A stretch of DNA of 64,000 nucleotides from Chloroflexota bacterium (GCA_040905225.1 JBBDRY010000110.1:26395-90394), one strand, 5' to 3'. Counted from the stretch's first letter, positions 28,136-63,842 are shown. The notes: generated by a model from the letters alone, not told the origin. A program made the numbers and translations.

Positions 28136-28228
28136 GGGTTCCTCATGCGAGGGCGAGCGAGGGTCGCCGGCGGAGGAGGAAGCCGGCGACCCCTGCCCGC
28201 ATGGGCCGAACGTTCTGTCGGGGGACGA

Positions 28229-31047: not shown

Positions 31048-31082
31048 CCCTGCCGAGCCGACTCGCTGGCTGATCTGTTCGA

Positions 31083-32667: not shown

Positions 32668-32692
32668 GCCGCAACGCGGGAGGTCGTCACGG

Positions 32693-33565: not shown

Positions 33566-34399
33566 TTAGAACGCCCTCGGGAAGACGGCCAGCAGGCCGC
33601 CATCGCAGGGCAGGTCGACGCCCGTAATGAACGACGATTCGGCCGACGCGAGGAAGAGCGCCGCGTTCGCCTGATCGATCGGGCGCCCCCAGCGTCCGAG
33701 CGGGATACCGCGCGGCTCGGAAGCCCGCACCGTGGACGCGAAGTCCTCGTCGGCGACGCCGACCGGCGATCCGGTCTGGGTCGGCGTCAACGTGTTGACT
33801 CGGATGCCGTGCTCGGCCAGCTCCATGGCCGCCGCCCGGGTCAGGTTGTAGACGCCGGCCTTGGCCACTGCGTAGGGGAACTTGCCCCGGATCCCGCGCA
33901 GCCCGCTCGTCGATCCCATGTTTACGATCGACCCGCCGCGGCCCTGCGCGATCATCTGCCGCGCGGCGTGCTTGGAACACAGGAACGTCGCCTTGAGCGT
34001 GACGCCGTGAATCATCTCCCACTGCTCGAGGGTGCAGTCGACGAGTGAGGCGTTGACCGTCGCGGCGACGTTGTTGACCAGCACGTCGAGACCACCGAAC
34101 GCCTCCACCACCGAGGCGACGAGTTGCTCCACGGCCGCCTCGTCTGTCACATCGGCGACGAACGCGGCCGCTTGACCGCCGGCGTTCCCGATCGCTGCGA
34201 CCACGCGCTCGGCCCGCTCCTCGTTCAGCTCCACGACGGCAACCGCGCTGCCCTCCGCCGCAAAGAGCTCGGCCATGGCGCGGCCGATGTTCTGGCCGGC
34301 GCCGGTGATGATCGAGACCTTGCCCGCCAGCCGTCCGCGGCCGATCGCCGTTCCTGGCTCCGCCGTCACATCTTGACGCGTGCGGTCGATGGCATCCAC
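33566..34399 (-). CDS. SDR-family oxidoreductase
   Basis: TGAGQNIGRA (TGxxxGxG) and YAVAKAG (YxxxK). Confidence 0.8.
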   Translation of the reverse strand: MDAIDRTRQDVTAEPGTAIGRGRLAGKVSIITGAGQNIGRAMAELFAAEGSAVAVVELNEERAERVVAAIGNAGGQAAAFVADVTDEAAVEQLVASVVEAFGGLDVLVNNVAATVNASLVDCTLEQWEMIHGVTLKATFLCSKHAARQMIAQGRGGSIVNMGSTSGLRGIRGKFPYAVAKAGVYNLTRAAAMELAEHGIRVNTLTPTQTGSPVGVADEDFASTVRASEPRGIPLGRWGRPIDQANAALFLASAESSFITGVDLPCDGGLLAVFPRAF

Positions 34400-38098: not shown

Positions 38099-38737
38099 TC
38101 ACCCAGCCGGCGGCGCGGGTGCGCCGTCGCCTCTGCTGGTCTCGTTTGAGTCTCCACCGCTTGCGTCGCGCGCGCGGTGACCGCCCCCGTCACTCATCAG
38201 TCGCTGCCTGGCGTCCATGACAGCGTCGAGGATCTTCACGTAGCTCCCGCAGCGGCACAGGTTGCCCCCCAGATATGCGCTCGCCTGATCACGGTCCGCC
38301 TGGGGCTCCTCGTCCAGAAGGGCCTTGGTGGCGACCACGAAACCCGGCGTGCAGTAAGAACACTGGAACCCAGTGTGTTCGACGAATGCGTCCTGGACCG
38401 GGTGGAGCTCGCCGGCCGGGCCAAGCAAACCCTCGACCGTCACGATCTCTCGACCCTCGGCCTGCATTGCGAGCATCAGACAGCCTGACACGATGCGGTC
38501 GTCGACGAGCACCGTGCAGGCGCCACACATCCCGACCCCGCAGCCCTCCCGGATGTCGATCAGGCCGACACGGTTGCGCAGGGCGTCCAGGAGGGTCTCC
38601 TGCGTGCGGACGCGAACCTGATGCTCCATGCCATTTACGCGCAGGACGAGGGTGACCCACTCCGCGTCTGGGTCCGGCGCCTCGGGGAGTGACGGGAAGG
38701 AGGGCGCCGGGGCGCTAAGGAGGTCTTGCTCCATCAC
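38099..38737 (-). CDS. (2Fe-2S)-binding small subunit (CoxS-like, set 3) with N- and C-terminal extensions
   Basis: CGVGMCGACTV, CSYCTPGF and CRCGSYVKI motifs. 212 aa. 4-nt overlap with the large subunit. Confidence 0.8.
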   Translation of the reverse strand: MMEQDLLSAPAPSFPSLPEAPDPDAEWVTLVLRVNGMEHQVRVRTQETLLDALRNRVGLIDIREGCGVGMCGACTVLVDDRIVSGCLMLAMQAEGREIVTVEGLLGPAGELHPVQDAFVEHTGFQCSYCTPGFVVATKALLDEEPQADRDQASAYLGGNLCRCGSYVKILDAVMDARQRLMSDGGGHRARDASGGDSNETSRGDGAPAPPAG

Positions 38738-41118: not shown

Positions 41119-41175
41119 CAGGCTCCGATTCTTCGGGGCAAGCGGGCCGCGCACGGTTCTCGCTGCGACCATCGT

Positions 41176-45581: not shown

Positions 45582-46786
45582 CCGGTCCGCTCGTCGGGCT
45601 GAGCGTCGTCGAGGTGGCGAGCTACGTCACCGGTCCCTACGCCTGCGCGCTGCTGGCCGACATGGGCGCACAGGTCGTGAAGGTCGAGCCCATGGAGCAG
45701 GGCGACCCGTTCCGCGGCTGGGGGAAGGGCGGCTACTCGCCGACGTTCCGTTCCGTGAACCGCGGCAAACGCAGCCTCTCTCTTGACCTTCGGAGCGCCG
45801 CGGGGCGGGACATCGTCCTCGAGCTGGCGGCGCGTGCCGATGTCCTCGTCGAGAACCACCGGCCGGGGACCGTTGAGCGGCTCGGCATCGGCTACGAAGA
45901 GGTTCGGAGGCGCAACCCGCGGATCGTCTACTGCTCGATCTCGGGGTTCGGGTCGAGCGGGCCGTACCGGGACCGGCCGGGCTACGACACGGTAGGGCAG
46001 GCGGTCAGCGGCCTCTTGAGCCTCCTGACGGACCTCGACCGGCCGCGGCCGATGGGTATCTCACTCTCCGACCACCTGACCGGGCTGTACGCCTGCTACG
46101 GGATCCTCGCCGCGTTGGTCGGCCGGTCCGTAAATGGCGAGGGACGCCTCGTCGAGACCTCGCTGCTGCAGGCGACCACGGCCTTCCTTGCCGAGAACGC
46201 CGCGCGCTACTTCGCCGAAGGCGACGTGCCCACACGCGAGACCCGTGCCGAGATCGCGCAGGCCTATGCCTTCGTCTGCGGTGACGGGCTTCCATTCGCG
46301 ATCCATCTATCCTCCCCGCCGAAGTTCTGGGAGGGCTTGACCGAGGCGATCGGCCGCCCGGACCTGCGCGACGACGCGCGCTTCGTGGACCGCGCGGCGA
46401 GGGTCCGGCACTACCGCGCGCTCGAGGAGATCCTCGCCCAGGCGTTCGCCACCGCGCCACGCGCGGAGTGGCTCGAGCGGCTCGACCGGCACGATGTCCC
46501 GGCCGGCCCTATCAACCGCCTCGACGAAGTGTTCGTTGATCCCGGCGTGCGCCACCTCGGGCTTACACAGGAGGTGGTCCATCCCACCGCAGGTGCGATG
46601 ACATTGCTCGGAGCAGGGGTCACCGTGGCCGGCCACGACGAGGCCTCGATCGCGCCACCGCCACTGCTTGGGGAGCACACCGACGAGATCCTCGGAGAGA
46701 TTGGAATTGCCGGTGCCGATCTCGAAAGGCTCGCGGCCGAAGGCGTCATCCGTCGTCCGGCCCCGGCCGCCAAGGGCGCGACGTGA
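45578..46786 (+). CDS. family III CoA-transferase (CaiB/BaiF family)
   Basis: LVGLSVVEVASYVTGPYACALLADMGAQVVKVEP N-terminus. 402 aa. ATGA overlap upstream and GTGA overlap downstream. Confidence 0.85.
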   Translation: MTGPLVGLSVVEVASYVTGPYACALLADMGAQVVKVEPMEQGDPFRGWGKGGYSPTFRSVNRGKRSLSLDLRSAAGRDIVLELAARADVLVENHRPGTVERLGIGYEEVRRRNPRIVYCSISGFGSSGPYRDRPGYDTVGQAVSGLLSLLTDLDRPRPMGISLSDHLTGLYACYGILAALVGRSVNGEGRLVETSLLQATTAFLAENAARYFAEGDVPTRETRAEIAQAYAFVCGDGLPFAIHLSSPPKFWEGLTEAIGRPDLRDDARFVDRAARVRHYRALEEILAQAFATAPRAEWLERLDRHDVPAGPINRLDEVFVDPGVRHLGLTQEVVHPTAGAMTLLGAGVTVAGHDEASIAPPPLLGEHTDEILGEIGIAGADLERLAAEGVIRRPAPAAKGAT

Positions 46787-47583
46787 GCGACACCGGCGAG
46801 TCGCGCGACGTGGCCGAGCCTCGCCCGCTGCGCACGCGACTGGGCCACGCGCTTCCCGATCGAGTACTCGTCCGCGGGCACGACCTGACCGCCGACCTCC
46901 TGGGCAACATCACTTACACCGACATGGTCTCCCTCATGCTGCTCGGCCGGCTGCCAACCGAGGCCGAGCGGCGGATGCTCGACGCGCTGCTCGTCGTGCT
47001 GGTCGAGCACGGACTGGTGAAGCCCGTGGTCGCTGCCCGTTTCGTCTACAGCAACGCGCCCGAGTCTCTCCAGGCGGCCGTGGCCGCATCGCTTCTGGGC
47101 GCCGGCAGCAAGCATCTTGGATCGAGCGAGTGGTGCGCTCGGATGCTCCAGGAAGCGATCGGGCGGGAATCGACGGACGAAGAGGTGGCGGCCGCCGGCG
47201 AGCGCGTCGTCGAGGCTTTCCGAGAGCGGCGCGAGCGGATCCCGGGCATCGGCCACCGGACGCACGCCGCAGGCGACCCGCGCGCGGATCGGCTCTTCGA
47301 GATCGCCCGCGAGACTGGAACCTACGGGCCCTACTCGGCGCTGCTCGAAAGGATCGCCGTCGTGGCCGGGGAGCGCGCCGGCCGGGGGCTACCCGTCAAC
47401 GTCACCGGCGCCATCGCCGCCATCGCGTCGGACATGGGCTTCCGCTGGGAGATCACGAGGGCGTTCGCCCTGATCGGCAGGACGCTCGGGGCACTGGCGC
47501 ATATCCAGGAGGAGATGGACGAGCCGATCAGCGACGCGCTGATCGAGCGGATCCGGCGCGATGTCGAGTACGAAACCGACTGA
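46783..47583 (+). CDS. short citrate-synthase-family protein (citryl-CoA lyase-like)
   Basis: GHRTHAAGDPRA matches the GHRVYK..DPR citrate synthase signature. 266 aa, the short form. Confidence 0.65.
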   Translation: MSDTGESRDVAEPRPLRTRLGHALPDRVLVRGHDLTADLLGNITYTDMVSLMLLGRLPTEAERRMLDALLVVLVEHGLVKPVVAARFVYSNAPESLQAAVAASLLGAGSKHLGSSEWCARMLQEAIGRESTDEEVAAAGERVVEAFRERRERIPGIGHRTHAAGDPRADRLFEIARETGTYGPYSALLERIAVVAGERAGRGLPVNVTGAIAAIASDMGFRWEITRAFALIGRTLGALAHIQEEMDEPISDALIERIRRDVEYETD

Positions 47584-53535: not shown

Positions 53536-53766
53536 TCACTCGTAAACGGTGAAATTAGCCTCGTACCGGCAACGGCAGCCGGCCGGCCGGGTGCAGTCGG
53601 GGACGGGCACAGATGGGAGCGTGGACGGGGTGTACATCTGGCCGTCGGAGCGGGCGCACGCTTCGCAACGCGTCGAATCTGCGGCGACCACGGCCACACC
53701 ATCGATATCGCCTTCGAGGTACAGGCGCTGGAAGCGCGCGATGAGATCGTCGTGCGGCGCGTTCAC
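53536..53766 (-). CDS. small cysteine-rich protein, paralog 1 (76 aa, unknown family)
   Basis: IDGVAVVAAD...C.AC...C...GCRCRYE..FTVYE. ~55% identical to 61477..61674. Sits between the GntR gene and the hydrolase in one operon. Confidence 0.5.
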   Translation of the reverse strand: MNAPHDDLIARFQRLYLEGDIDGVAVVAADSTRCEACARSDGQMYTPSTLPSVPVPDCTRPAGCRCRYEANFTVYE

Positions 53767-53779
53767 CGATCCCTCGCGC

Positions 53780-54496
53780 TCAGCTGGCCACGGAGAGCTC
53801 GTGCCCGATCGCCTTCCTCACGTGCAGCTGCGTCATGTACTCGGACGCGGCCCGGAGGTGCCGCGTCGACGCGAACTCGGCCGCGTCGGCATCGTGCTCC
53901 TCCAGCGCCCTCAGGATCTGCTCGTGCTCGTCGAAGACCGTGTTCACGCGCGGACTGCTGCTGAATGCCTCGGTGCTGAAGCGGCGCACGAAATCTGAGA
54001 GATCGCGCGCGAGCCGCGACAGCGTCGCGTTGCCGGCGGCGCGGTAGATGACGTCGTGGAAGGCCATGTTGGCATTGACGACGATCTCCGTGCGGCCCGC
54101 ATTCAGCCCCTCGTGCATCGAATCGAGAATGGCTCGCAGGCGCAGGAGCTCCTCGGGCGCGATCCGCTGCGCGGCGAGCCGCGCAGCCAAACCCTCGAGG
54201 ACCTCGCGCACCAGGTAAACATCCTGGATCTCGTGCGGCTCTGGCTCGTGGACGACAAGGCCGCGCACGGGATCTGCGTGGACCAGCTTGTCGGTCATGA
54301 GCCGCTTGAGCGCCTCGCGCACCGGCGTGCGGCTGACTTCGAACTCCGCGGCGAACTGGAGCTCCACCAGCCGCGTGTGGGGCGGAAGCTCCCCCGAGAT
54401 GATCATCTCTTTCATCCGCCGGTACACGCGCTCGCTGCTCGGAAGCCCGTCATCGCGGACCCCTGCAACAGCGCTCCTGGTGCGCGAACGAGCCAC
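53780..54496 (-). CDS. GntR-family (FadR/FCD subfamily) transcriptional regulator
   Basis: wHTH ...YRRMKEMIISGELPPHTRLVELQFAAEFEVSRTPVREALKRL plus an all-helical FCD C-terminal domain. Start is GTG near 54496 or ATG 54415. Confidence 0.75.
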   Translation of the reverse strand: MARSRTRSAVAGVRDDGLPSSERVYRRMKEMIISGELPPHTRLVELQFAAEFEVSRTPVREALKRLMTDKLVHADPVRGLVVHEPEPHEIQDVYLVREVLEGLAARLAAQRIAPEELLRLRAILDSMHEGLNAGRTEIVVNANMAFHDVIYRAAGNATLSRLARDLSDFVRRFSTEAFSSSPRVNTVFDEHEQILRALEEHDADAAEFASTRHLRAASEYMTQLHVRKAIGHELSVAS

Positions 54497-54524
54497 CTGC
54501 TCCGCCTCACCTGCCCTCGATCGG

Positions 54525-54534
54525 TACCGCGGTA
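54525..54534. promoter_or_regulatory. perfect 10-bp palindrome TACCGCGGTA in the GntR/FAD-oxidase divergent intergenic region
   Basis: Read directly. It has the ACC..GGT core seen in GntR-type operators. Overlaps the 8-bp palindrome CGGTACCG. Confidence 0.25.
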
Positions 54535-54604
54535 GGGCACCTGCGGCCGAGTATACGGCAGCATGCCGCGGCCGCAAGAAGCACGGGACCGATAGGCTAC
54601 GGTC

Positions 54605-55708
54605 GTGGAGGTGTGCGTGGTCGGCGCGGGGATCATGGGCGCAGTCACGGCCTACCACCTGTCGCGCCGCGGCGCACGAGTGATGGTGATCGAGGCCACC
54701 ACCCTGGAGCCGCGCGGCGCGAGCGCGGCGACCTTCGGCTGGATCAACGCCAACTCCAAGCAGCCGGAACACTATTTCGAGCTGAACCGCGCGGGCATGG
54801 AGGCGCACGGCGAGCTCCGCGATGCTCTCGGCGGCGGATCGTGGCTGCGCGGCGGTGGGAGCGTGGAGTGGGCCGATCCGGAAGGCGCTGCCGCTCTTCG
54901 CGCTCGCGTTGACGCGCACGCAGCGCGGGGCTACCCGGCGGAGCTGATCGATGCCGCGCGTCTCCGTGAGCTCGAGCCTGAGCTCGAACCCGAACCCTCG
55001 CCGACCGAAGTCGCCTTCTTCCCATCCGAAGGCTCGGTCGACACCGTTCCGCTGATAGGCGTCCTGCTCGCCGCCACGCAGGGCATGGGCGCCGTGATCA
55101 AGCGCGGCGTCCGCGTGACGCATCTCGACGCCGGCAGGGATGGCCGCGCCATCATCGTTCTGGACCCTTCCGAGACGATCAGAGCCGACGTGGTGGTGAA
55201 CTGCGCGGGAGCTGATGCAGGCCCGCTGGCGGTGCAGGGCGGGCTGATGGTGGATACCGGTGGTCCTGTGGGACTTAACGCCGTGACGGTCCCGGTCTCC
55301 GTTTCGCTCGGTCGGGTCGTCCGCGCGCCAGGAGTCCATTTTCGTCCCGAGCGTGGTGGCCGGATCATGATCGCGTCCCCTTCGGCCGACGCGGCGCTCG
55401 CCACAGGTACTGACACGAGCGGGTTGGCCGAGCGCCTGGTCGACGCGGCCGCACGTCATCTTCCCGGCCTCGCCGGTGCGGCCATCGAGGAGGCACGCGT
55501 CGCGCGGCGCGCGATTCCTCCGGATGGGCTACCGATTGCCGGACGCCTGGCGGACGCGCCGTGGCTTTACCACCTCGTGACCCACAGTGGCGTGACCCTC
55601 GCGCCGCTGCTGGGTCGCCTGGCGGCGGAGGAGATCCTCGGCGGCGCAGAGGACGCGCGCCTGGCGCCTTACCGTCCGGATCGATTCACCACTTCGGTAA
55701 GCTCTTGA
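54605..55708 (+). CDS. FAD-dependent oxidoreductase (DAO/glycine oxidase/sarcosine oxidase-beta family)
   Basis: VCVVGAGIMGAVTAYHLSRRGARVMVIE dinucleotide-binding motif. 367 aa. Confidence 0.75.
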   Translation: MEVCVVGAGIMGAVTAYHLSRRGARVMVIEATTLEPRGASAATFGWINANSKQPEHYFELNRAGMEAHGELRDALGGGSWLRGGGSVEWADPEGAAALRARVDAHAARGYPAELIDAARLRELEPELEPEPSPTEVAFFPSEGSVDTVPLIGVLLAATQGMGAVIKRGVRVTHLDAGRDGRAIIVLDPSETIRADVVVNCAGADAGPLAVQGGLMVDTGGPVGLNAVTVPVSVSLGRVVRAPGVHFRPERGGRIMIASPSADAALATGTDTSGLAERLVDAAARHLPGLAGAAIEEARVARRAIPPDGLPIAGRLADAPWLYHLVTHSGVTLAPLLGRLAAEEILGGAEDARLAPYRPDRFTTSVSS

Positions 55709-55789
55709 GATGCGGCTCATCGCCGAGGAGATTGTCTGCGTCCTCGCGGCCCAGGGGCTCGCGCCCAACCGTCCGCTGCGGTTACAAGC

Positions 55790-56468
55790 ATGATCTCTGT
55801 CGACGGACGCGAGGCGCTTCGGGCGCTCGCCAACCGGCCCGCGGTCGTGACGATCGATCTGCATCGCGGACACCTCGATCCCGAGGTCGCGACACTCCCG
55901 ATGCCTGCCGATCGGGCCGCGGCGCTTATGGAGCGGGTCGTCCCGCTGCTGGACCGCTACCGCGCGGCCGGGCTGCCGGTGTTCCACCTCGTGACCTGGT
56001 ATCGGGACCGCTCGGAGATCCTGAGCAACCCCATCTGGCGCTATCGCGCGGAGCGCGCGGCCGGGCTCCGCAAGCGGATCGCAGACCACAACATCGACGG
56101 AATGCCAGGCATCGAGCTGATGCCCGGAATCGCCCGGCCGGGGGACCGGATCCTGACGACGAAGAAGCGCTACGACTGCTTCGTTGGGACCGACCTGGAG
56201 TTTCGTCCTTCGCTCGGGCGACCATGACGCGCTCTTCGTGATGGGCGTTAACACCAATTCGTGTGTCCTTGCGACGTCGACTGCGGCATCGTCGCGGGAC
56301 TTCGCGGTCTTCGTGGTCGACGACGGCTGCGACTCGATGCTCGGCCGTGACCTCCACGAGGCGGCCGAATCGGTGATCAACGGATCGTTCGGATGGATCG
56401 TGACCGGCGAGCAGACGCTCGAGCTGCTCGCCGAACGAGCTGGCGCCGTCGGCGCCGCGGGAGGTTGA
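55790..56468 (+). pseudogene. isochorismatase/cysteine-hydrolase-family amidase with a 1-nt frameshift (probable assembly error)
   Basis: ORFs 55790..56227 and 56184..56468 join as ...KKRYDCFVGTDLEFVLRSGDHDALFVMGVNTNSCV... if one T is removed from the TTT at 56201-56203. Confidence 0.7.
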
Positions 56469-56470
56469 GC

Positions 56471-56680
56471 GTGCCGAGGCTGATCGTCCAGCAGATCGAA
56501 GGCCGAAGCGTCGAGCAGAAGCGCGAGCTCGCGCGGAGGCTGACGGACACCGTCGTCGACATCCTGAACGTAGACCCGGAGACCGTGACGGTGTTCATCG
56601 AGGAAGTCCCACCGGAGAATTTCGCTCGCGGCGGCGTACTCGCGGTGGACCGCCGTGCGGGGGAACGCGCTAGCGAATAG
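56471..56680 (+). CDS. 4-oxalocrotonate tautomerase-family protein
   Basis: MPRLIVQQIEGRSVEQKRELARRLTDTVVDIL has the catalytic Pro1 and aligns closely with 4-OT. 69 aa. Confidence 0.8.
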   Translation: MPRLIVQQIEGRSVEQKRELARRLTDTVVDILNVDPETVTVFIEEVPPENFARGGVLAVDRRAGERASE

Positions 56681-56689
56681 AGTCGGACC

Positions 56690-57808
56690 GTGACCGTCGA
56701 GCTCAACGGGATCCGCCTGCGCAACCGGCTGCTGACCTCGGCCAGCCTGCTCGGCTACGGTGCGGGCAAGGGCCGGCTGATCCTCTACGGGCTGTCGCCG
56801 ATCGCCCAGTGGGTGCCGCTCGAGCGGTTCGGCGCCGTCGTGACGCGGACCATGACCGTCCAGCCCCGCGAAGGCCACTTCACGCTCCGCGAGGACTGGA
56901 AGATCTGGCAGTTCCCCGAGATGCTCGGCATGTATTCGCGCGCTCTGCGCCGCGTAGACGCGGGCTGGTTGAACGCTTTCGGCTGGTCGAACATCGGGAT
57001 CGATCGGTACTTCGAGGAATACGAGCGGAGGACGCGGAAGCAGAACCGCATTCTCTCGCTAGGTGGCTTCTCTGCCGAGGAATTCGGCTCGCTCGTTGAA
57101 ACCGTGAACCAGCGCATGAAGCCGGGCGAGATTGCCGCGGTCGAGTTCAACGTCTCGTGCCACAACGTGAACTTTCCCTTCGAGACGATCCTGGAGGACG
57201 TCCTGGCGACCGCGGTTCCGCTGTCCCGCCACCCGGTCATCCTCAAGCTCTCGCCCGACTACGACTACGTCGAGCACGCCCACATGGCGGCGCGCCACGG
57301 AGTCGCCGCCCTGACCGCCATCAACGCCGTCAAGGCGCTGCGGCTGGATCCCAGGACCGGGGAGCCGCTGCTCAAGAACCGCTACGGCTCGCTGTCCGGC
57401 CGTGCCATCAAGCCGATCGGCCTGCGCATCGTTTCGGAGCTGCGGGAGGCCGGCGTCCGCCTGCCGATCATCGCGTCGGCCGGGATCCGGACGTTCGACG
57501 ACTGCCGCGAGTTCTTTTGGGCAGGTGCAGACGCAGTCTCGCTCGGCTCTGCGGTCTGGCTCAAGCCGATGCCGCTCTACGCGCTTGGCCCGCTCGAGGG
57601 TCTGCGCATCCGCCGGCTGATCGGCAAGGTCGAGCGTTACGACGTGCCCGAGCGCAAGCCTCAGCCGATCGACTTCACCCCGCACCCGCTCGAGGCTGAG
57701 CCGTACGAGGCTGAGCCGTACGACGCCGAGCCGGACGAGGCTGAGCCATACGAGGCCGGCGAGGGCGTGCGCGACGAGGCGGAGCTCGCCGGCACCGGGA
57801 CTCGTTGA
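56690..57808 (+). CDS. dihydroorotate dehydrogenase-family protein (PyrD/PreA-like TIM-barrel flavoenzyme) with an acidic EAEPY-repeat tail
   Basis: EFNVSCHNVNFP (cf. NLSCPN) and IIASAGIRTFDD are DHOD-family blocks. The C-terminus is EAEPYEAEPYDAEPDEAEPYEAGEG. Confidence 0.7.
   Translation: MTVELNGIRLRNRLLTSASLLGYGAGKGRLILYGLSPIAQWVPLERFGAVVTRTMTVQPREGHFTLREDWKIWQFPEMLGMYSRALRRVDAGWLNAFGWSNIGIDRYFEEYERRTRKQNRILSLGGFSAEEFGSLVETVNQRMKPGEIAAVEFNVSCHNVNFPFETILEDVLATAVPLSRHPVILKLSPDYDYVEHAHMAARHGVAALTAINAVKALRLDPRTGEPLLKNRYGSLSGRAIKPIGLRIVSELREAGVRLPIIASAGIRTFDDCREFFWAGADAVSLGSAVWLKPMPLYALGPLEGLRIRRLIGKVERYDVPERKPQPIDFTPHPLEAEPYEAEPYDAEPDEAEPYEAGEGVRDEAELAGTGTR
57682..57756. repeat. 15-bp imperfect tandem repeat x5 (GAGGCTGAGCCGTAC) encoding the EAEPY tail
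   Basis: Read directly. Confidence 0.85.
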
Positions 57809-58422
57809 CCCGAAAGCGACTGTCGGACGCCGGCCCTGGCCGGGAGCCGACCGCTTCGCGCTCAGCAGGGGCCGAAGGCCCGCTGCGGAGGAAGGTCGAC
57901 CGCGACGGCCTCGCTCGTGATCTGGTCGCCGCGGCCGTCCTGCGCGGCACATTCACGCTCCGGTCGGGGCAGACGAGCAGCTACTACATCGACAAGTACC
58001 GACTGACGACCGAGCCTGGGCTGCTCTCGCGCATCACCGATCGACTGGCCGAGATGGTTCCCGAAGGCATCGAGCGTGTCGCGGGCACCGCACTCGGTGC
58101 AGTCCCGCTGGCGACCGCGCTGTCGCTCGCGACCGGCCTGCCATCCGTGTTCGTGCGCGTCGACGCGGCGAAGGACCACGGGACGGGGAAGTCGATCGAG
58201 GGCCGGCTTGACGCAGGCGATCGCGTGGCGCTGGTAGAGGACGTTGTTACCACGGGCGGAGCGAGCCTGACCGCGGTTGAGCTGCTGAACGCGGCAGGTG
58301 CGCAGGTCGTGGCCGTGATCGCCGTGGTCGACCGTGAGGAGGGCGGCCGGGAGCGGTTTGTCGATGCCGGCATCTCGTTCCGCCCGCTTTTCACGGTGAC
58401 GGAGCTCGGAATCGGCGACTGA
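57805..58422 (+). CDS. orotate phosphoribosyltransferase-family protein (PyrE-like)
   Basis: LRGTFTLRSGQTSSYYID and the PRPP loop LVEDVVTTGGAS. TTGA overlap with the DHOD-like gene. Start uncertain. Confidence 0.75.
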   Translation: MTRKRLSDAGPGREPTASRSAGAEGPLRRKVDRDGLARDLVAAAVLRGTFTLRSGQTSSYYIDKYRLTTEPGLLSRITDRLAEMVPEGIERVAGTALGAVPLATALSLATGLPSVFVRVDAAKDHGTGKSIEGRLDAGDRVALVEDVVTTGGASLTAVELLNAAGAQVVAVIAVVDREEGGRERFVDAGISFRPLFTVTELGIGD

Positions 58423-58454
58423 GCTCGCTCTAGGCGCGCAGCAGAGCCCAGGGG

Positions 58455-59411
58455 CTACTGCGCAGACCGAAATAGCCGCGCCACCAGCGCAAAGGTTCCC
58501 GTGGCCAAGGCGATACCGGTGAGGACCAGCGCTGCGCCGGCGAGCTGGAGGGGGGAGAGCGACTCGCCGAGGACCGGTACTGCCAGGATTGCTGCCGTCA
58601 ACGGGTTGAGCATCAGGTAAGCCGAACCCTCCGATGTCGGCAGTCGACGATGGCTCTCGGCCAGCAGGATCGTCGCGATGGCACCCGCAACGATGCCCAA
58701 CCAGAGGACGGCCAGCCATGCGTCGGGCGGCGGCGACGGTCTGACCAGCGGGTCGCCGGCGGCTATCGCGAGCAGGAGGCCGGACACGCCGAGGAGCGCG
58801 AAATTGGTGAACGTGATCTGGGTCGGCCTGATGCCCCACGGCCGCTGCCACCGTCGCGACAGAAGCATGAATAGCGCCGTTCCTACGGCGGTAGCCCCCG
58901 CCACGAGCGCACCCTCGACGCGGATGCCCGCGACATCGAAGCCGGCGATCAGGAGCGTTCCAGTGAAGGCAAGTCCGAGGCCGGCGACCGCGGCGACCCG
59001 TAGCGGCTCGCGCAGGACGAGCGGCGCGGCGGCCGAGGCCAGCACCGGATATGCGCCTGCGATGAAGGCCGTGATCGCCGCACCGGTCAGCATGATCGAG
59101 ACGTTCATCCCGATCCCGAACGCAGCGCCTCCGAGAAGGCCGAGCACTACCAGGCGGACGAGCCAGCCCCGCCTCGACGGCGCCGCTCCGGTCGGCGGCG
59201 TCGATGCCGCGTTGCTCGGGCGTCGCAGCCACAGGATCGCGGGCACGAGCACCACGACGGTCACGAGGGAACGCCACGCCGCGAGGGCGAACGGGGAGAA
59301 GCCGTGCAGCGCGACACCTGTGGCGACCCACGACGTCCCGTAGAGCACCGCGGCTCCTATGGCTGACGCCGGCCCGCCCCATCCGTGGCGGCGCTCGTGG
59401 GCTGCGGTCAC
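58455..59411 (-). CDS. DMT/EamA-family transporter (second copy)
   Basis: 318 aa, ten TM segments, two EamA halves. Confidence 0.7.
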   Translation of the reverse strand: MTAAHERRHGWGGPASAIGAAVLYGTSWVATGVALHGFSPFALAAWRSLVTVVVLVPAILWLRRPSNAASTPPTGAAPSRRGWLVRLVVLGLLGGAAFGIGMNVSIMLTGAAITAFIAGAYPVLASAAAPLVLREPLRVAAVAGLGLAFTGTLLIAGFDVAGIRVEGALVAGATAVGTALFMLLSRRWQRPWGIRPTQITFTNFALLGVSGLLLAIAAGDPLVRPSPPPDAWLAVLWLGIVAGAIATILLAESHRRLPTSEGSAYLMLNPLTAAILAVPVLGESLSPLQLAGAALVLTGIALATGTFALVARLFRSAQ

Positions 59412-59452
59412 GTGCTCACGGTAACTTCTTCACATCCGCCGGGGCGGCTAAT

Positions 59453-59462
59453 CTGCATGCAG
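59453..59462. promoter_or_regulatory. 10-bp palindrome CTGCATGCAG ~90 nt upstream of ubiX
   Basis: Read directly in the 170-bp divergent intergenic region. Confidence 0.15.
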
Positions 59463-59550
59463 TCGCATCCGAGACGTCCCGCCGCGACGGTAGTCTGTTC
59501 CGGGAGGAGAGAGCACCTGTGATCTTTCAGCGGCAGGCAGGGACCGCTCG

Positions 59551-60165
59551 GTGACGGACGGTTCGCCCAGGCGGATCGTGGTCGGGATGTCCGGCTCCAG
59601 CGGCGCGATTTTCGGTATCCGCCTCCTGGAGGTGCTTTCCCGGGTCCCGGAGCTCGAGACCCACCTCGTGATGAGCACCGCGGCCGCACAGACGATCGCC
59701 CTCGAGACCGACTACAAGCCGCGCGACGTCGAGGCGCTGGCGACCAGGAGCTACAAGATCGGCGACATCGCCGCATCGCTGTCGAGCGGCTCGTTCCGGA
59801 CTGATGGCATGATCGTCGTGCCCTGCTCGATGAAGTCCGTAGCGGCCATCGCCTACGGCTACGACGAGAACCTGCTCTCGCGGGCAGCGGACGTGACGCT
59901 CAAGGAGAGGCGCCGGCTGATCGTCTGCCCCAGGGAGACGCCGCTCCACCTGGGCCACCTCCGGGCGCTCACCCAGCTGGCCGAGATCGGCGCGATCGTC
60001 GCGCCGCTGATGCCGGCGTTCTACGGCCGACCAAGCTCGATCGACGATCTCGTGGACCACCAGGTCGGACGCCTGCTCGACCTGATCGGTGTGAACGTCG
60101 AGGGGCTGGCCTTTCGCTGGCAGGGCGCGAAGAGCGCGTCGCCGGAGGCTAAGGCCGATGACTGA
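59551..60165 (+). CDS. ubiX: flavin prenyltransferase UbiX (prFMN synthase)
   Basis: [22 protein letters not shown]...[19 protein letters not shown]...[13 protein letters not shown] aligns across the whole E. coli UbiX length. 204 aa. Confidence 0.9.
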
Positions 60166-61452
60166 CTTCGATCTCGTCGTTCGCAACGGCACCGTCGTCA
60201 CGAGCAACCGGCGACGCGAGGTCGACATCGGTGTGATCGATGGCCGTATCGCATCCATCTCTCGACGCGGCGGACTGAGCGGGACAGGTGACGAGGAGAT
60301 CGACGCGACCGGTCACTATGTCCTTCCCGGCGTCATCGACGGCCACGTCCAGTTCCGCGAGCCGGGCATGGAATACAAGGAAGACTGGATGACCGGCTCC
60401 CGCGCCGCCGTGATGGGCGGCGTCACGACGGTGCTGGACATGCCGAACACCATTCCCCAGACGAGCACGCCCGAGGGCGCGCGGGTGAAGCAGGGGCCGA
60501 GCAGGGCCTGGTCGTCGGCATCAAGGCTTTCCTTGGCATCACCATCGGTGGCATTCCGGCACCGCATGACGGCGCGGTGCTCGACGGCATGCGCGCCATC
60601 CAGAGCGTTGGCCTGCGCCTCGGGTTCCACGCCGAGAACAACGACGTGATGGCGAACGAGATCCGCAAGCTCCAGGAGCAGGGACGCAACGACCCGCTGG
60701 CGCACGTCGAATCGCGGCCCGTGATCGCCGAGGTCGAGTCAATCCAGCGCATGGGCCTTTTCGCCAAGCACACCGGCTGCAGGGTCCACATATTCCATCT
60801 CTCGTCCATGCACGGGCTCGAAATGATCGACGAATGGCGGGACAAGGGCGTCGACTTCACCTGCGAGACGGGCGCCCACTACTGCTTCCTGACGTCCGAC
60901 AACATGAAGGAGCTGGGCCCGATCCTGCGCATGAACCCACCGGTCCGCGAAGCCGGCCACGGCGACGCGCTGGTGGTCGGTCTGGCCGATGGACGGGTCA
61001 CCTCGATCGCTACCGACCACTCCCCGCACACGCGCGAGGAAAAGCTCAATCCCGACATCTGGAAGGCGATCAGCGGGTTTGCCGGCGTCGAGACTTCGGT
61101 GCGCCTGTTCCTGACCTACGGCGTCAACGCGGGCCGCATGACGCTGGAGCAGTTCGTTCGCGCGTCCTCGGAGGGACCCGCCAAGACGTGGTCGATGTGG
61201 CCGCGCAAAGGTGCGTTGGAAATTGGCTCGGACGCAGATTTCACGATCATCGATCTTGAGAAGGAAGGCGTCATCCGCGAGGCCGAGCTGCACGGCAAGA
61301 ACAACATCAACCCGTTCGAGGGCCACGCGACGAAGGGCATGGCAGTGGCCACTGTTGTGCGCGGCAGAGTGCAGATGCGCGACGGCGAGCTCACCGGCGA
61401 ACAGGGTTTGGGCCGGCTGATCTCTCCGCTCGTGCCGGTCGCGGCGGGCTGA
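60158..61452 (+). pseudogene. dihydroorotase-like cyclic amidohydrolase, copy 2, with a 1-nt frameshift in a G-homopolymer (probable assembly error)
   Basis: ORF 60158..~60500 ([23 protein letters not shown]...MPNTIPQT) and ORF 60577..61452 join if GGGG at 60493-60496 is read as GGGGG (…[17 protein letters not shown]…). 8-nt overlap with ubiX. Confidence 0.75.
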
Positions 61453-61476: not shown

Positions 61477-61674
61477 TTGCAGACGCTGTTCCTCGACGGC
61501 GTCATAGACGGAGTGGCGCTGGTCGCCGCCGACGCGAACGCATGTTCCGTGTGCGCCGAAGTCACCGACCGGGCGTACCTCCCCACGCAGCTGCCGCGCC
61601 TGCCGATCTATGGCTGCACCTCGGCGCGGGGATGTCGCTGCCGCTATGAGCCGGGCTTCACCGTGGTTGAGTAG
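61477..61674 (+). CDS. small cysteine-rich protein, paralog 2 (65 aa, unknown family)
   Basis: VIDGVALVAADANACSVCAEV...CTSARGCRCRYEPGFTVVE. Lies between the amidohydrolase and the MoxR gene. Confidence 0.5.
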   Translation: MQTLFLDGVIDGVALVAADANACSVCAEVTDRAYLPTQLPRLPIYGCTSARGCRCRYEPGFTVVE

Positions 61675-61683
61675 ATTCGGCTG

Positions 61684-62568
61684 ATGGACAGCATCGACGC
61701 CGTCGAATCGGGCCTGCGCGAGCGTGGCTACGTCGCTGACCGTGCCCTCGCCACCGCAGTCTTCCTCGGGCTGCGCCTCGGCCGTCCGTTGCTGCTGGAG
61801 GGCGAGGCGGGCGTCGGCAAGACAGAGCTCGCCAAGGTCCTCGCTGAGGCGCTCGGCACGCGGCTGATACGGCTCCAGTGCTACGAGGGCCTGGACGTCA
61901 ACAACGCGGTGTACGAATGGAATTATCCGCGCCAGATGCTCGAGATTCGGCTGCTCGAGGCGCGCGGGATGGCCGACCAGGCCGCCAGGCAGATCTTCGG
62001 CCCCGACTTCCTCATCCGGCGGCCGCTTCTCCAGGCGCTGGAGGCGGTCGATGGCAAGCCGCCCGTCCTGCTCATCGACGAGGTCGACAGGGCCGACGAG
62101 CCCTTCGAGGCCTACCTGCTCGAGATCCTGTCCGACTACCAGGTGACGGTGCCCGAGATCGGCACGATCAAGGCCGAAACGCCGCCGCACGTGATCCTCA
62201 CGTCGAACCGGACTCGCGAGGTCCACGACGCGTTGAAGCGCCGCTGCCTGTACCACTGGATCGACTACCCGTCGAGCGAACGAGAAGTCGAGATAGTGCT
62301 GTCGCGCATTCCCGAAGCGCCGCGTGTGCTCGTGGGGCAGGTGGTGGCCTTCGTCCAGGGTCTACGGCAGGGGGACCTCTCGAAGTTGCCCGGCGTGGCG
62401 GAGACGCTCGATTGGGCGGCCGCGCTGATGGCCCTGGGCGCGGGCGAGCTCGACGATCCGGTGGTCGACGCGACCCTGGGCGTGATCCTGAAGTACGAAG
62501 AGGACGTGCACCGCGTCCGCGGAGACGAGGCGGGCCGGCTGGTCGCGGCCGCGCGCGAGGTGGCTTGA
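61684..62568 (+). CDS. MoxR-type AAA+ ATPase (CoxD-like Mo-hydroxylase maturation factor)
   Basis: Walker A GEAGVGKTE, Walker B LLIDEVDRA. 294 aa. Confidence 0.8.
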   Translation: MDSIDAVESGLRERGYVADRALATAVFLGLRLGRPLLLEGEAGVGKTELAKVLAEALGTRLIRLQCYEGLDVNNAVYEWNYPRQMLEIRLLEARGMADQAARQIFGPDFLIRRPLLQALEAVDGKPPVLLIDEVDRADEPFEAYLLEILSDYQVTVPEIGTIKAETPPHVILTSNRTREVHDALKRRCLYHWIDYPSSEREVEIVLSRIPEAPRVLVGQVVAFVQGLRQGDLSKLPGVAETLDWAAALMALGAGELDDPVVDATLGVILKYEEDVHRVRGDEAGRLVAAAREVA

Positions 62569-63842
62569 TCCAGCTCGACCCGGAGCGGCTGCTGGCCGCC
62601 GCGGTCGGGTTCGGACGCGAGCTGCGTGCCGCGGGCGTGGCGGTGGCGATGCCGCAGACGCTCGATTTCGTCCGCGCGCTCGGCGTGATGGACCTCGGTG
62701 AGCGCGCGGACGTGCGTTCAGCGAGCCGGTCGATCCACGTTCGACGCCGCGAGGACGTCGAGGTCCACGACGCGCTGTTCGATTCTTTCTGGTCCGCGCG
62801 TCGGGAATTGATCGTCTCGAAGCCATCGTCGGAGGCGCCCCACCGAGGCGCATCAGGCCAGGGACCGGACGGATCGGTGACGCCTCCACGGAGAGCCCAC
62901 CCAGGTACGGCCCGCGACTCCACATCGGCCGCGCCGGCGTTCGTCGTTTCGCGGCGGAGCTACAGCCGAGAGGAGCTTCTTCGCCAGCGCGACTTCGACC
63001 GAATGACGCCCGACGAGTTACGGGAGGCAGAGCGCCTGTTCGATCGGCTGGCCACGAGCCTTGCAACGCGTCCGGCGCGCCGCTACGAGATACACGCTCA
63101 CGGCACTCGACTCGCGCCGCGTCCGATGCTCCGGCGCAGCGTCGCGACCGGCGGTGAGCTCGTGGACTGGCTCTGGCGCAGACCGCGCGTGGTTCCGCGA
63201 CCGGTGACACTGCTCATCGACGTGAGCGGCTCGATGGAGTCGCACGCCCGCATGATGTTGCGCTTCGCCCATTCGCTGCGGCGCGTGAATCGACGAGCCG
63301 AGGTGTTCGTCTTCGGCACGCGCCTGACCCGCGTCACCCGGGCCTTAGCTGCGCGAAATGCGGACGAGGCGCTCGCGCGCGTTTCGACCGAGGTTGCGGA
63401 CTGGTCGGGCGGCACGCGCATCGGTGACTGCCTGCGCGAATACAACAATCGTTGGGCGCGACGCGTTGGGTCGTCGGACGGCATCGTCGTCGTGATGAGC
63501 GATGGCTGGGACCGCGGCGACCCGGATCTGGTGGGTACGGAAGCGATGCGGCTGCGTCGGAATTGCCGCCGCCTGCTGTGGCTAAACCCGCTCGCCGCCG
63601 CGGCCGGATTCGAGCCACTCGCGGCCGGGATGGCCGCTGCCGCGCGGCACGTAGATCGGCTGTTGCCGGCCGGCTCGCTCGATGACCTCGAGGATCTTGC
63701 TGGGCTACTGACCGCGACTCGCTGGGGCGGTCGCCCGTCGCCGCAGCGGCAAACCTCTCCGGAGTCGACGCCTGCAATCAAGGCTCGGACCGTAGACAGG
63801 GTGGCTGCGGATCGACGACCAGACGCGACGAGCCCACTCTAG
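62565..63842 (+). CDS. VWA-domain protein (CoxE-like)
   Basis: MIDAS motif LLIDVSGSM. TTGA overlap with the MoxR gene. ~425 aa. Confidence 0.7.
   Translation: MIQLDPERLLAAAVGFGRELRAAGVAVAMPQTLDFVRALGVMDLGERADVRSASRSIHVRRREDVEVHDALFDSFWSARRELIVSKPSSEAPHRGASGQGPDGSVTPPRRAHPGTARDSTSAAPAFVVSRRSYSREELLRQRDFDRMTPDELREAERLFDRLATSLATRPARRYEIHAHGTRLAPRPMLRRSVATGGELVDWLWRRPRVVPRPVTLLIDVSGSMESHARMMLRFAHSLRRVNRRAEVFVFGTRLTRVTRALAARNADEALARVSTEVADWSGGTRIGDCLREYNNRWARRVGSSDGIVVVMSDGWDRGDPDLVGTEAMRLRRNCRRLLWLNPLAAAAGFEPLAAGMAAAARHVDRLLPAGSLDDLEDLAGLLTATRWGGRPSPQRQTSPESTPAIKARTVDRVAADRRPDATSPL

Follow-up and report, generated by a model that had tools for sequence, protein, structure and literature searches.

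We describe, in the genome of a Limnocylindria bacterium, a translationally coupled gene pair encoding a DHOD-like flavoprotein and an OPRT, which we read, with a probability of roughly 0.5, as a module that serves the use of orotate-type heterocycles, not housekeeping, and lies within a GntR/FCD-controlled operon of a heterocycle-degradation island. The pair belongs to a window of 64,000 nucleotides, the whole stretch of DNA analysed here. The source bacterium is a member of the Chloroflexota, class Limnocylindria, from soil or freshwater. Five ORFs occupy positions 54605-58422, preceded by a divergent regulator:

53536-53766, minus strand: Cys-rich ORF, copy 1, 76 aa (CxxC...C-x5-CRCRYE), a conserved neighbour of the DAO gene
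53780-54496, minus strand: GntR-family regulator with an FCD ligand domain (PF00392, E 7e-19; PF07729, E 8e-29)
54548-54568, no strand assigned: 21-nt operator-like block CGAGTATACGGCAGCATGCCG, including a GTATAC palindrome, in the GntR-DAO spacer
54605-55708, plus strand: ThiO/glycine-oxidase-like FAD amine oxidase of the DAO family (PF01266, E 4e-50)
55790-56468, plus strand: isochorismatase-family amidase, frameshifted (PF00857 in two pieces; ORFs 55790-56227 and 56184-56468)
56471-56680, plus strand: 4-oxalocrotonate tautomerase (4-OT) family protein, 69 aa (MPRLIV...; PF01361, E 1e-18; GTG start)
56690-57808, plus strand: DHOD-family flavoprotein paralogue (PF01180, E 7e-31)
57691-57756, plus strand: 15-nt tandem repeat, 4.4 copies, coding for an acidic tail (EAEPY) on the DHOD-like protein (TRF score 104)
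57805-58422, plus strand: second OPRT, of the E. coli/Mtb type (PF00156; TIGR00336 pyrE 145.3, cut-off 106.8)

The first-pass annotation had claimed a tight five-gene operon with a TTGA overlap, divergent from a GntR gene, and this layout is borne out: all five ORFs and the regulator were found, with intergenic gaps, in gene order, of 81, 2 and 9 nt and then a stop/start overlap of 4 nt (57805-57808). The five ORFs are probably transcribed together.

Limnocylindria MAGs carry a canonical pyrimidine locus of the form pyrR-pyrB-pyrC ... pyrK-pyrD-(DUF4349)-pyrE. Its PyrR, PyrC, PyrD and PyrE score above NCBIfam cut-offs, and its PyrK candidate, at 154 for a cut-off of 314, was assigned from Pfam PF10418 and position. 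The canonical PyrD (P0353-type) is 86-94% identical over more than 120 clusters, some of them named Ca. Limnocylindrales. Of 87 canonical loci, 54 have PyrK, 59 have PyrE and none has a member of the DHOD-like family. Pooled KO lists of CSP1-4 Limnocylindria also contain pyrB, pyrC, pyrK, pyrDI, pyrE and pyrR (PMC13212565 source data). Because this canonical locus exists in Limnocylindria, the DHOD-like gene and the OPRT gene count as additional copies and not as the lineage's housekeeping set; the earlier view of them as paralogs, which would fall if they were the sole pyrD and pyrE, thus holds at the level of the lineage. The window's own genome presumably carries the canonical and the second set together.

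Judged by its sequence, the DHOD-like protein belongs to a distinct clade that lacks PyrK and has a remodelled active site. It scores 157.6 against PRK07259 (cut-off 269), below every NCBIfam PyrD cut-off and on a scale where true class 1B PyrDs reach 333-384, and it shares 31% identity with the canonical Limnocylindria PyrD. Its nearest PDB entries are the PyrD subunits of DHODB (1EP1, 5UE9; hmmsearch E 4e-27, Foldseek E 8e-19), to which an AF2 model (pTM 0.82) aligns with a TM score of 0.70-0.75. With class 1B PyrD (L. lactis DHODB) it shares the FMN TIM barrel and the catalytic Cys in an N-x-S-C-x-N loop, and it retains Asn95, Asn154, Asn159, Asn212 and Lys186. It differs in lacking PyrK (no PyrK-type ORF occurs in 87 DHOD-like loci) and in carrying an Arg at the equivalent of Lys43/48; 14 residues are inserted after PREGH, and the first 90 residues are remodelled. 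The search for an electron acceptor or a partner yielded none. Across the clade, Arg replaces the FMN/orotate Lys, SCPN becomes SCHN in an active-site loop shortened by 5 residues, and N-T becomes N-A; R53, C157-H158 and N212-A213 are invariant. The EAEPY tail is not conserved in relatives. Since the Asn/Cys set is common to DHOD and dihydropyrimidine dehydrogenase, orotate is indistinguishable here from a uracil-type or pyridone-type substrate. The clade has 339 matches among GTDB species genomes, and nearly all of the 80 listed are Chloroflexota/Limnocylindria; sequence matches include entries named Ca. Limnocylindrales.

The partner looks like a canonical OPRT. It passes the TIGR00336 equivalog-domain cut-off, and its motifs FTLRSGxxSxYYID, KDHGTGKSIEG (loop) and VEDVVTTG (PRPP) can be aligned to their counterparts in the human, Leishmania and Mtb OPRTs, matching the orotate-binding FxLxSGxxSxxYxD, the K-x-x-G-T-x-x-x-I-E-G catalytic loop and the PRPP motif of PyrE structures (Mtb 5HKF, human UMPS 2WNS). 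The PyrE of the lineage's canonical operon is different, a Thermus-type protein (TIGR01367, 224 aa) sharing 31% identity with it. Unlike that PyrE, OPRTs of the window type are coupled with a non-canonical DHOD, or with the DAO gene and the small ORF. The only in-frame start ahead of the domain is the TTG at 57805, and the resulting TTGA overlap predicts translational coupling to the DHOD-like gene. A phosphoribosyltransferase (PRT) gene lies within 10 kb of the DHOD-like gene in 28 loci, about a third of those sampled, and immediately downstream in 20; these PRTs form two clades that never share a locus.

The closest relative (L084) has the same operon except for the isochorismatase: its GntR gene is divergent from DAO-4OT-DHOD-PRT-UbiX-AAA-VWA. 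The regulator is also called in L001, and another relative (L005) carries an equivalently placed orthologue, 83% identical. The block CGAGTATACGGCAGCATGCCG is unchanged in the window, L084 and L005 although the rest of the spacer has diverged. It is unique in the window (1 match, 0 expected, with up to 3 mismatches allowed) and confined to these loci among the 174 compared.

The DAO-family protein has ThiO as its top NCBIfam match (113 bits, cut-off 251) and a "glycine/D-amino acid oxidase" (7FGP, E 7e-48) as its nearest solved structure. The tautomerase scores 64.5 on TIGR00013 (cut-off 56.9) and resembles 4-OT/YwhB-type short tautomerases in size (about 62-69 aa) and in retaining Pro1 and Arg11; it departs from them in the Thr that fills the column of an Arg in aligned 4-OT homologues, in standing outside a meta-cleavage pathway context and in accompanying a DAO-family oxidase. 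Cys-rich copy 1, which has no Pfam match, is kept beside the DAO gene in L002, L018, L021, L022 and L084. A functional tie between DAO/4-OT and DHOD/OPRT is plausible.

The isochorismatase-like amidase that had been counted in the operon is indeed present, but its reading frame is broken. A one-base insertion (+1 frameshift) near 56201 ends frame 1 in ...GTDLEF, with frame 2 carrying on as VLRSGDHDALFVMGVNTNSCV, and PF00857 positions 2-105 and 107-175 match in different frames. Among solved structures it comes closest to putative hydrolases, biuret hydrolase and N-carbamoylsarcosine amidase. It shares the fold family of these ureido-amidases and RutB, with Asp-Lys-Cys triad motifs legible once the frame is repaired, but the similarity is weak and sub-threshold, and the gene is genome-specific as well as frameshifted. 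Homologues are absent from 86 related loci except the identical L001. That locus, in the Logan assembly of SRR27977661, carries the same 10.4 kb including the same gene breaks, and the assembly probably shares its origin with the window. The five genes are accordingly not a conserved unit: the isochorismatase occurs in one genome, and DAO and 4-OT stand beside the DHOD-like gene in about 9 of about 85 loci.

Further candidate partners lie elsewhere in the window:

21839-23356, plus strand: UbiD decarboxylase (TIGR00148 306, cut-off 245)
about 23440-24846, plus strand: intact DHOase/allantoinase-like amidohydrolase paralogue (TIGR03178 allantoinase 373, cut-off 358; TIGR00857 pyrC_multi 337, cut-off 279)
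59551-60165, plus strand: UbiX flavin prenyltransferase (NF004685 253, cut-off 188)
60158-61452, plus strand: DHOase/allantoinase-like cyclic amidohydrolase, a pseudogene split over two frames
61477-61674, plus strand: Cys-rich small ORF, copy 2 (52% identical to copy 1)
61684-62568, plus strand: MoxR/CoxD-like AAA ATPase (MadB-family ATPase, 282 bits, under the cut-off)
62565-63842, plus strand: CoxE-like VWA protein (MadC VWA, 70 bits, under the cut-off)

Of the two PyrC-like genes reported at first pass, then, one is intact and the other decayed: relative to its L004 orthologue, the copy at 60158-61452 has lost residues 127-149 (about 23 codons), has HxQ for HxH (HVHF to HVQF) and is frameshifted. 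With two of the cluster's amidase genes disrupted here, the pathway encoded at this site may be in decay. In L084, UbiX immediately follows the PRT gene within one operon and is itself followed by the same AAA and VWA pair, the second gene with PF05762 VWA_CoxE; the adjacency of UbiD and amidohydrolase recurs in the P0016 locus. The window also holds 3 CoxL-type hydroxylases, 3 UbiD genes with UbiX, a CoA-transferase III, a citrate-synthase-like gene, PrpF, an ICL-family gene and RraA-like genes. That UbiD might take the place of OMP decarboxylase, as proposed at first pass, is a speculative reading of gene neighbourhood.

Around DHOD-like genes generally, the recurring neighbours are type II asparaginase (24 loci), a cyclic amidohydrolase (about 10), DAO with the small ORF and with or without 4-OT (about 9), HydAB, CoA-transferase and a citrate-synthase-like gene (about 7), and UbiD/EamA/CoxL (about 7). 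About 45 of 80 sampled genomes instead place the gene in a conserved core block of CvpA-protease, DUF885, F420-type LLM, DHOD, asparaginase, M20 peptidase and KAS, with PRT, DAO and catabolic genes all absent within 10 kb. The catabolic association is therefore true of a minority and could be secondary. The catabolic setting first ascribed to the pair fits this island, whose links to DHOase-like amidohydrolase, UbiD/UbiX and Mo-hydroxylase recur elsewhere, but not most genomes, where the core block has no such neighbours.

The pair could also be an isozyme set, a second de novo route from DHO through orotate to OMP with another electron acceptor (fumarate, O2, quinone or F420) or other regulation, DAO and 4-OT being unrelated. 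Lactococcus lactis has both DHODA and DHODB (pyrDa and pyrDb), and yeast has URA5 and URA10. The kept catalytic Cys, four Asn and FMN motifs, the entirely canonical OPRT motifs, the coupled DHOD-then-PRT order, the class-wide core location and the F420-type LLM immediately upstream in about 30 loci all agree with it. We nevertheless consider it improbable, at about a one-in-five level of belief, given that invariant substitutions (K to R; P to H with the loop shortened; T/S to A) fall exactly on substrate and FMN positions, that the gene clusters in several independent arrangements with cyclic amidohydrolases, asparaginase, UbiD/UbiX, Mo-hydroxylases and DAO/4-OT, and that the operon has a GntR/FCD regulator and a conserved operator-like block, as is typical of catabolic control.

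Somewhat less probable still is pyrimidine synthesis run backwards, in which orotate would be reduced to dihydroorotate (DHOD-like protein, reverse), opened to N-carbamoyl-aspartate (DHOase-like amidohydrolase), cleaved to aspartate, CO2 and NH3 (isochorismatase-family ureido-amidase), oxidized to iminosuccinate (DAO) and released as oxaloacetate and NH3 with tautomerase-assisted imine/enamine handling, OPRT salvaging part of the orotate. Clostridium oroticum classically ferments orotate through dihydroorotate and N-carbamoyl-aspartate to aspartate, CO2 and NH3. Precedents thus exist for pyrD/pyrC chemistry in the catabolic direction (C. oroticum) and for two DHODs within a single genome (L. 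lactis); both organisms use canonical enzymes of class 1A or 1B, whereas the window enzyme falls in a clade of its own, below threshold and altered at active-site residues. The yeast URC pyrimidine-degradation pathway has a PRTase as its first catabolic step, a precedent for a phosphoribosyltransferase within a heterocycle-catabolic route, but no URC1-/URC4-type genes were seen and the window PRT is OPRT-type, not UPRT-type. This scheme gives a role to each operon gene and to the adjacent amidohydrolase; the isochorismatase family includes ureido-/carbamoyl-amidases (with weak matches to RutB, biuret hydrolase and N-carbamoylsarcosine amidase), DAO resembles glycine/D-amino-acid oxidase, the amidohydrolase exceeds the pyrC_multi cut-off, and GntR/FCD regulators commonly sense carboxylates. 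Against this, the isochorismatase is frameshifted and found in the window's genome only, the adjacent amidohydrolase is a pseudogene, the L084 operon has neither, and orotate reduction needs a low-potential donor, of which none was identified. With both genes broken, an amidase-dependent catabolic branch would be incomplete from these copies.

We give slightly less credence to the DHOD-like protein being a ring ene-reductase for a hydroxylated pyridine/pyridone carboxylate delivered by the island's Mo-hydroxylases and UbiD, with the amidohydrolase opening the ring. Such a scheme would resemble the 6-hydroxynicotinate reductase plus enamidase of Eubacterium barkeri and the citrazinate route by which Mycobacterium sp. 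INA1 degrades isonicotinate. The CoxL-type hydroxylases, UbiD/UbiX, CoA-transferase III and related genes of the window, the company that DHOD-like genes keep in at least 5 further loci (UbiD, CoxL, amidohydrolase, asparaginase and EamA), and an altered active site suggestive of a non-orotate substrate point this way. Genetic precedent was not found in the literature searched, and the conserved coupling with a canonical-looking OPRT and the class-wide core location are left unexplained.

That the organism has no pyrD or pyrE besides these two, which would then lie next to catabolic genes by chance, is very unlikely: the family is highly conserved class-wide (70-92% identity) and sits in a core-genome block in most genomes, the PRT passes the pyrE model and JGI and NCBI pipelines label the two proteins DHOD and OPRT, but the canonical pyrK-pyrD-pyrE and pyrR-pyrB-pyrC genes with their above-cut-off products, pyrK in the CSP1-4 KO lists, a DHOD without PyrK below every PyrD cut-off, and the substituted active-site Lys, Pro and Thr all speak against it.

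Our findings thus favor a non-housekeeping module: a second, class-wide conserved set of a PyrK-independent DHOD-family flavoenzyme and a genuine OPRT-type phosphoribosyltransferase. In the window's sub-lineage the pair would act behind a ThiO-like amine oxidase and 4-OT, forming an imine and handling imine/enamine intermediates in the company of a 73-aa Cys-rich protein, in an operon presumably held by a GntR repressor at the conserved operator-like block; the isochorismatase would be a recent genome-specific insertion, now frameshifted. Most likely, the pair would catalyse conversion between orotate, or a close analogue of it, and a dihydroorotate-type ring, and tie the base to its 5'-phosphoribosyl nucleotide. 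The pair may in this way use or salvage orotate-type heterocycles, whether imported or released by the heterocycle-degradation genes around it, apart from de novo synthesis.

In the ORF listing and the Pfam and NCBIfam scans, five co-directional genes fill window positions 54605-58422 exactly, with a regulator gene divergent from them.

Genes of the operon and its regulator (window coordinates)
53780-54496, minus strand: GntR + FCD regulator, divergent from the operon (PF00392, winged helix, and PF07729)
54605-55708, plus strand: DAO-family FAD oxidase (PF01266, E 4e-50; ThiO is the best NCBIfam match, below cut-off)
55790-56468, plus strand: isochorismatase-family protein (PF00857, in two pieces)
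56471-56680, plus strand: 4-OT tautomerase, 69 aa (GTG start; Pro1 kept; above the TIGR00013 cut-off)
56690-57808, plus strand: DHO_dh protein, hereafter DHOD-like (PF01180, E 7e-31)
57805-58422, plus strand: phosphoribosyltransferase, hereafter PRT (TIGR00336 pyrE, 145.3 against a cut-off of 106.8)

These coordinates bear out the first-pass annotation, which had described a five-gene array with TTGA coupling, divergent from a GntR gene. The intergenic gaps are 81, 2 and 9 nt and the last junction, between the DHOD-like and PRT genes, is the TTGA overlap, where TTG at 57805 is the sole in-frame start before the PRT domain. Gene order and spacing thus describe a compact GntR/FCD-headed operon, whose regulator matches both the GntR winged helix and the FCD domain of the GntR/FadR subfamily. 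The spacer between regulator and operon holds a 21-nt block, CGAGTATACGGCAGCATGCCG (54548-54568, including GTATAC), identical in the window, in its closest relative L084 (GCA_039919485.1) and in the related locus L005, and present in no other sequence examined; it is a candidate operator for the FCD regulator. Consensus scans for promoters and terminators over 53600-60300 found none, but in a Chloroflexota genome of 68% GC such a negative is uninformative.

The tautomerase scores 67.1 bits with Pfam (cut-off 22) and 64.5 with TIGR00013 (cut-off 56.9), and begins MPRLIV with the catalytic Pro1. Arg11 is kept, and Thr stands in a column where the aligned PDB homologues have Arg; the carboxylate clamp residues (Arg11, Arg39) are numbered as in P. 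putida 4-OT. The isochorismatase ORF is broken by a one-base insertion (+1 frameshift) near 56201, and its Asp-Lys-Cys triad motifs (IDLH, TKKRYDCF, NTNSCV) can still be read despite the broken frame. The Logan assembly of SRR27977661 contains a 10.4-kb contig of identical sequence, interrupted at the same places. In L084 the order is GntR / DAO-4OT-DHOD-PRT-UbiX-AAA-VWA, and isochorismatase, EamA and amidohydrolase genes are lacking; because it is absent from that operon, we regard the isochorismatase gene as a genome-specific insertion.

The DHOD-like protein passes the Pfam DHO_dh model (107.8 bits against 27) and falls well below the curated PyrD cut-offs (PRK07259, 157.6 against 269; TIGR01037, 147.6 against 270; archaeal PyrD, 122.8 against 330), failing every other NCBIfam PyrD model as well. 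For comparison, PRK07259 gives 384 for the canonical Limnocylindria PyrD and 333 for genuine class 1B PyrDs recovered by exhaustive search, which are 34-37% identical to the DHOD-like protein. The relatives next in line (33-43% identity) likewise score below threshold as DHOD-likes, and identity within the family across the class is 70-92%. Redox and base-binding residues are kept: none of 21 family members departs from the catalytic C157 or from N95, N154, N159 and N212, all of which align with DHODB and the canonical PyrD, and Lys186 and the FMN-phosphate motifs are conserved too. Three family-invariant changes fall in the active site, namely Arg53 in place of the FMN/orotate Lys (Lys43 in DHODA), S-C-H-N for S-C-P-N, where the active-site loop is also shortened by five residues, and N-A (N212-A213) for N-T/S; a 14-residue insertion after PREGH is likewise invariant.

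Among solved structures, the protein comes closest to the PyrD subunit of L. lactis DHODB. An AF2 model (pTM 0.82, inserts of low confidence) resembles DHODB at a TM of 0.70-0.75, with DPD and class 1A DHODs as the next matches; it was obtained with canonical PyrDs added to the input, as 21 close family members alone gave a pLDDT of 48 and that model was discarded. A 15-nt tandem repeat of 4.4 copies (57691-57756) gives the window protein an acidic EAEPY-repeat C-terminal tail, which is absent from its relatives, whose tails are unrelated and variable. No PyrK gene accompanies the family: PF10418 is missing from the 8 Pfam-annotated loci, and no ORF with CGxGxCxxC other than CoxS occurs in 87 DHOD-like loci. 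Neither the window nor these 87 loci contain a second DHO_dh paralogue. With the fold and the Cys/Asn residues of the family present, and the PyrD cut-offs, the Lys, Pro and Thr positions and the PyrK partnership all failing, sequence comparison classifies the protein as a DHOD-family paralogue, not a PyrD.

Aligned to 3QW4, 2WNS, 2P1Z and 5HKF, the window PRT shows the PRPP motif, the flexible catalytic loop and the orotate-binding N-terminal motif, and is by these features an OPRT-type enzyme. A PRT lies within 10 kb of the DHOD-like gene in 28 loci, directly downstream in 20 (clade 2, the window type); the remaining ones form clade 1, are about 50% identical, and lie on the opposite strand beside the DAO gene, a small Cys-rich ORF or asparaginase. 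OPRT motifs are kept in both clades, which never occur together in one locus. The DHOD-like protein and OPRT form a conserved functional pair, distinct from canonical pyrK-pyrD-pyrE.

Around the pair, several gene modules recur between genomes, and every one of them also occurs in the 64-kb window.

Recurring neighbours of the DHOD-like gene
About 45 of 80 GTDB loci: core block, co-directional and conserved, CvpA-protease > DUF885 > (F420-type LLM) > DHOD > (type II asparaginase) > M20 peptidase > KAS genes
24 loci: asparaginase adjoining the DHOD-like gene
About 10 loci: DHOase/allantoinase-like amidohydrolase nearby, e.g. amidohydrolase-DHOD-PRT or DHOD-PRT-amidohydrolase
About 9 loci: DAO oxidase with the 73-aa Cys-rich ORF, usually with 4-OT too
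About 7 loci: HydA-HydB-CoA-transferase III-citrate-synthase-like operon, convergent with DHOD
About 7 loci: UbiD, EamA and CoxL nearby

Clustering of the DHOD-like/OPRT genes with heterocycle catabolism is recurrent, not universal. The earlier proposal of pyrimidine-gene paralogues in a catabolic operon stands as regards extra copies and a catabolic setting; the five-gene composition varies between genomes, and one member is a pseudogene. Its further suggestion, a UbiD enzyme in place of OMP decarboxylase, is speculative. Two annotations considered for the neighbours were dropped: the M20 peptidase is not assigned as a carbamoyl-amino-acid amidohydrolase, as NCBIfam places it in a generic PRK07906 / ArgE-DapE group, and the LLM gene is not RutA, as it matches F420-type LLM subfamilies only.

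The Cys-rich ORF family (73-76 aa, CxxC ... C-x5-CRCRYE(P/A)) has two copies in the window, at 53536-53766 (minus) and 61477-61674 (plus), and others in the loci L002, L005, L018, L021, L022, L055 and L084. Since it adjoins a DAO-family oxidase in six other genomes, its product may be a metal-binding partner subunit of that oxidase. In two loci (L085, 8803-9999; L006, about 7470-9188) the DHOase-like amidohydrolase gene is separated from the DHOD-like gene by an ORF of about 398 aa whose ends overlap both of them, which suggests that some genomes have an additional module member. Neither the Cys-rich ORF nor the L085 ORF has a Pfam or NCBIfam match.

The pair is predicted to act in the manner of a DHOD and an OPRT. 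It would interconvert a dihydroorotate-type ring with orotate or a close analogue and tie that product to its ribonucleotide, serving the use or salvage of orotate-type heterocycles and not de novo synthesis. The DAO oxidase, 4-OT and small protein would carry out an amine to imine/enamine step in the same substrate stream. We infer this joint reading with a probability of about 0.5. Its best-surviving rival, a plain DHOD/OPRT isozyme that uses a different electron acceptor, is unlikely.

Full reversal of pyrimidine synthesis, with orotate catabolised down to oxaloacetate, is a still less probable explanation; it has the merit of a role for every gene, but the two amidases it requires are broken here or missing in the closest relative. 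The first-pass annotation had counted two PyrC-like genes. One, following a UbiD gene at about 23440-24846, is intact and passes the allantoinase and pyrC_multi models; the other, at 60158-61452, is a true pseudogene, which compared with its orthologue in the related locus L004 has HxQ for HxH, about 23 codons lost and a frame shift. Two amidase genes, this amidohydrolase and the isochorismatase, have thus decayed in this genome. The window's third disrupted gene, at 2897-4323 (minus), encodes a UbiD paralogue and changes frame near 3814-3820; it shares 62-72% identity with the undamaged UbiD at 28232-29731.

Positions 1-53000 form a dense catabolic island.

Other features of the window
4499-6847, 16368-18776 and 38734-41178 (minus): CoxL-type Mo-hydroxylases, with CoxS and CoxM subunits
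10013-11188, minus strand: FMN_dh/IDI-2-like gene
11170-12222: type II asparaginase
12222-15871, minus strand: PrpF, PEP-mutase/ICL-family, RraA-like and LLM genes
19980-21785, minus strand: ThDP enzyme
27023-28228, minus strand: bicupin
31074-31805: arylmalonate-decarboxylase/maleate-isomerase-like gene
41209-45581: HydA/HydB
45578-46786: CoA-transferase III
46720-47583: citrate-synthase-like gene
Three genes in the window: UbiD decarboxylases
Two in the window: ABC transport systems

GC dips locally to about 0.62 at 32000-34000, against about 0.68 elsewhere, in a segment where unassigned ORFs accompany a small ORF resembling zinc metalloproteases (HELGHTLGLAHE, 32095-32667); this segment may be an insertion.

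Together with their recurrent neighbours UbiD/UbiX, the Mo-hydroxylases, the DHOase/allantoinase-like amidohydrolases and type II asparaginase, the DHOD-like protein and OPRT could conceivably make up a pathway, so far undescribed, that handles orotate-like N-heterocyclic acids, a speculation to which we give the same low odds as the reversal. The remodelled DHOD site (Arg, His, Ala, shorter loop) would then set specificity. Orotate is an alpha,beta-unsaturated acid, the substrate type of UbiD enzymes, and in one version prFMN/UbiD would decarboxylate orotate or its nucleotide, giving a route between orotate-type and uracil-type rings that is independent of OMP decarboxylase. To our knowledge no family or pathway with this gene set has been described; full-text searches returned none, and literature searches on PDB 7FGP, on MadB/UbiD and on the gene cluster for citrazinate/isonicotinate gave nothing relevant. 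More doubtful again is a ring ene-reductase acting on hydroxylated pyridine carboxylates supplied by the island's Mo-hydroxylases and UbiDs, which leaves the OPRT unexplained.

The window (GC about 68%) and its DHOD-like protein belong to a lineage with canonical pyr genes of its own. Named homologues of the protein are from Candidatus Limnocylindrales or Chloroflexota, and among 339 matching stretches (one genome per GTDB species) the best 80 are almost all Limnocylindria MAGs. P0353, a high-GC canonical PyrD from the exhaustive search, proved to be the Limnocylindria PyrD; used as a query it retrieved more than 120 clusters that share 86-94% identity with it, several of them labelled Ca. Limnocylindrales. 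The canonical locus reads pyrR-pyrB-pyrC-(DAO-family gene) ... pyrK-pyrD-(two DUF4349 genes)-224-aa PRT. Its PyrR, PyrC and PyrD exceed NCBIfam cut-offs, its PRT narrowly exceeds the Thermus-type pyrE cut-off, and its PyrK candidate, below cut-off (154 against 314), was identified by PF10418 and position. PyrK is present in 54 and the 224-aa PyrE in 59 of 87 canonical loci, both counts being limited by contig ends; the DHOD-like family appears in none of the 87, and the window and the DHOD-like loci are in turn free of canonical pyr genes. In the canonical loci L088 (3916-5259) and L089 (3326-4648), the gene immediately after pyrC is a DAO-family member resembling pipecolate oxidase, with about 25% identity to the window DAO.

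For CSP1-4, a family of Limnocylindria, published KO tables include pyrB, pyrC, pyrK, pyrDI, pyrE and pyrR; pyrF (K01591, OMP decarboxylase) is missing from the pooled freshwater list and present in the sediment list (PMC13212565, source data Fig. 2a,b). The freshwater absence may be genuine or may reflect a missed annotation; it is relevant to, and fits, the UbiD pathway without by itself supporting it. The canonical locus, the 31% identity of the window DHOD-like protein and PRT to canonical PyrD and PyrE, the sub-threshold scores without PyrK, and the CSP1-4 lists together point to an ordinary pyrimidine pathway elsewhere in Limnocylindria and to the window pair as a second set, at the level of the lineage. 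Matching by MAG accession prefixes or NCBI protein accession series found no single genome with both sets, and L003, a named JGI contig with a DHOD-like gene, was not among the results of a metagenome scan for canonical PyrD. That the window genes are the only pyrD/pyrE and hence housekeeping, a check raised by the first-pass annotation, is highly improbable given the canonical pyrK-pyrD-pyrE elsewhere in the lineage.

Limnocylindria rank with the most abundant Chloroflexota of soils and lakes, and we know of none that has been characterised biochemically. The second DHOD/OPRT system is class-wide and mis-annotated: a DHOD-family enzyme with changed catalytic-site residues is coupled to a second OPRT, and pipelines name both ordinary PyrD and PyrE, which can mislead pathway reconstruction, for instance calls of pyrimidine prototrophy. 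A mere isozyme would amount to a modest annotation note. If instead the pair handles an orotate analogue, or reverses the chemistry of pyrimidine synthesis, it would provide a function for a family with 339 matches among GTDB species genomes and a new point at which N-heterocycle catabolism feeds into, or draws from, the nucleotide pools.
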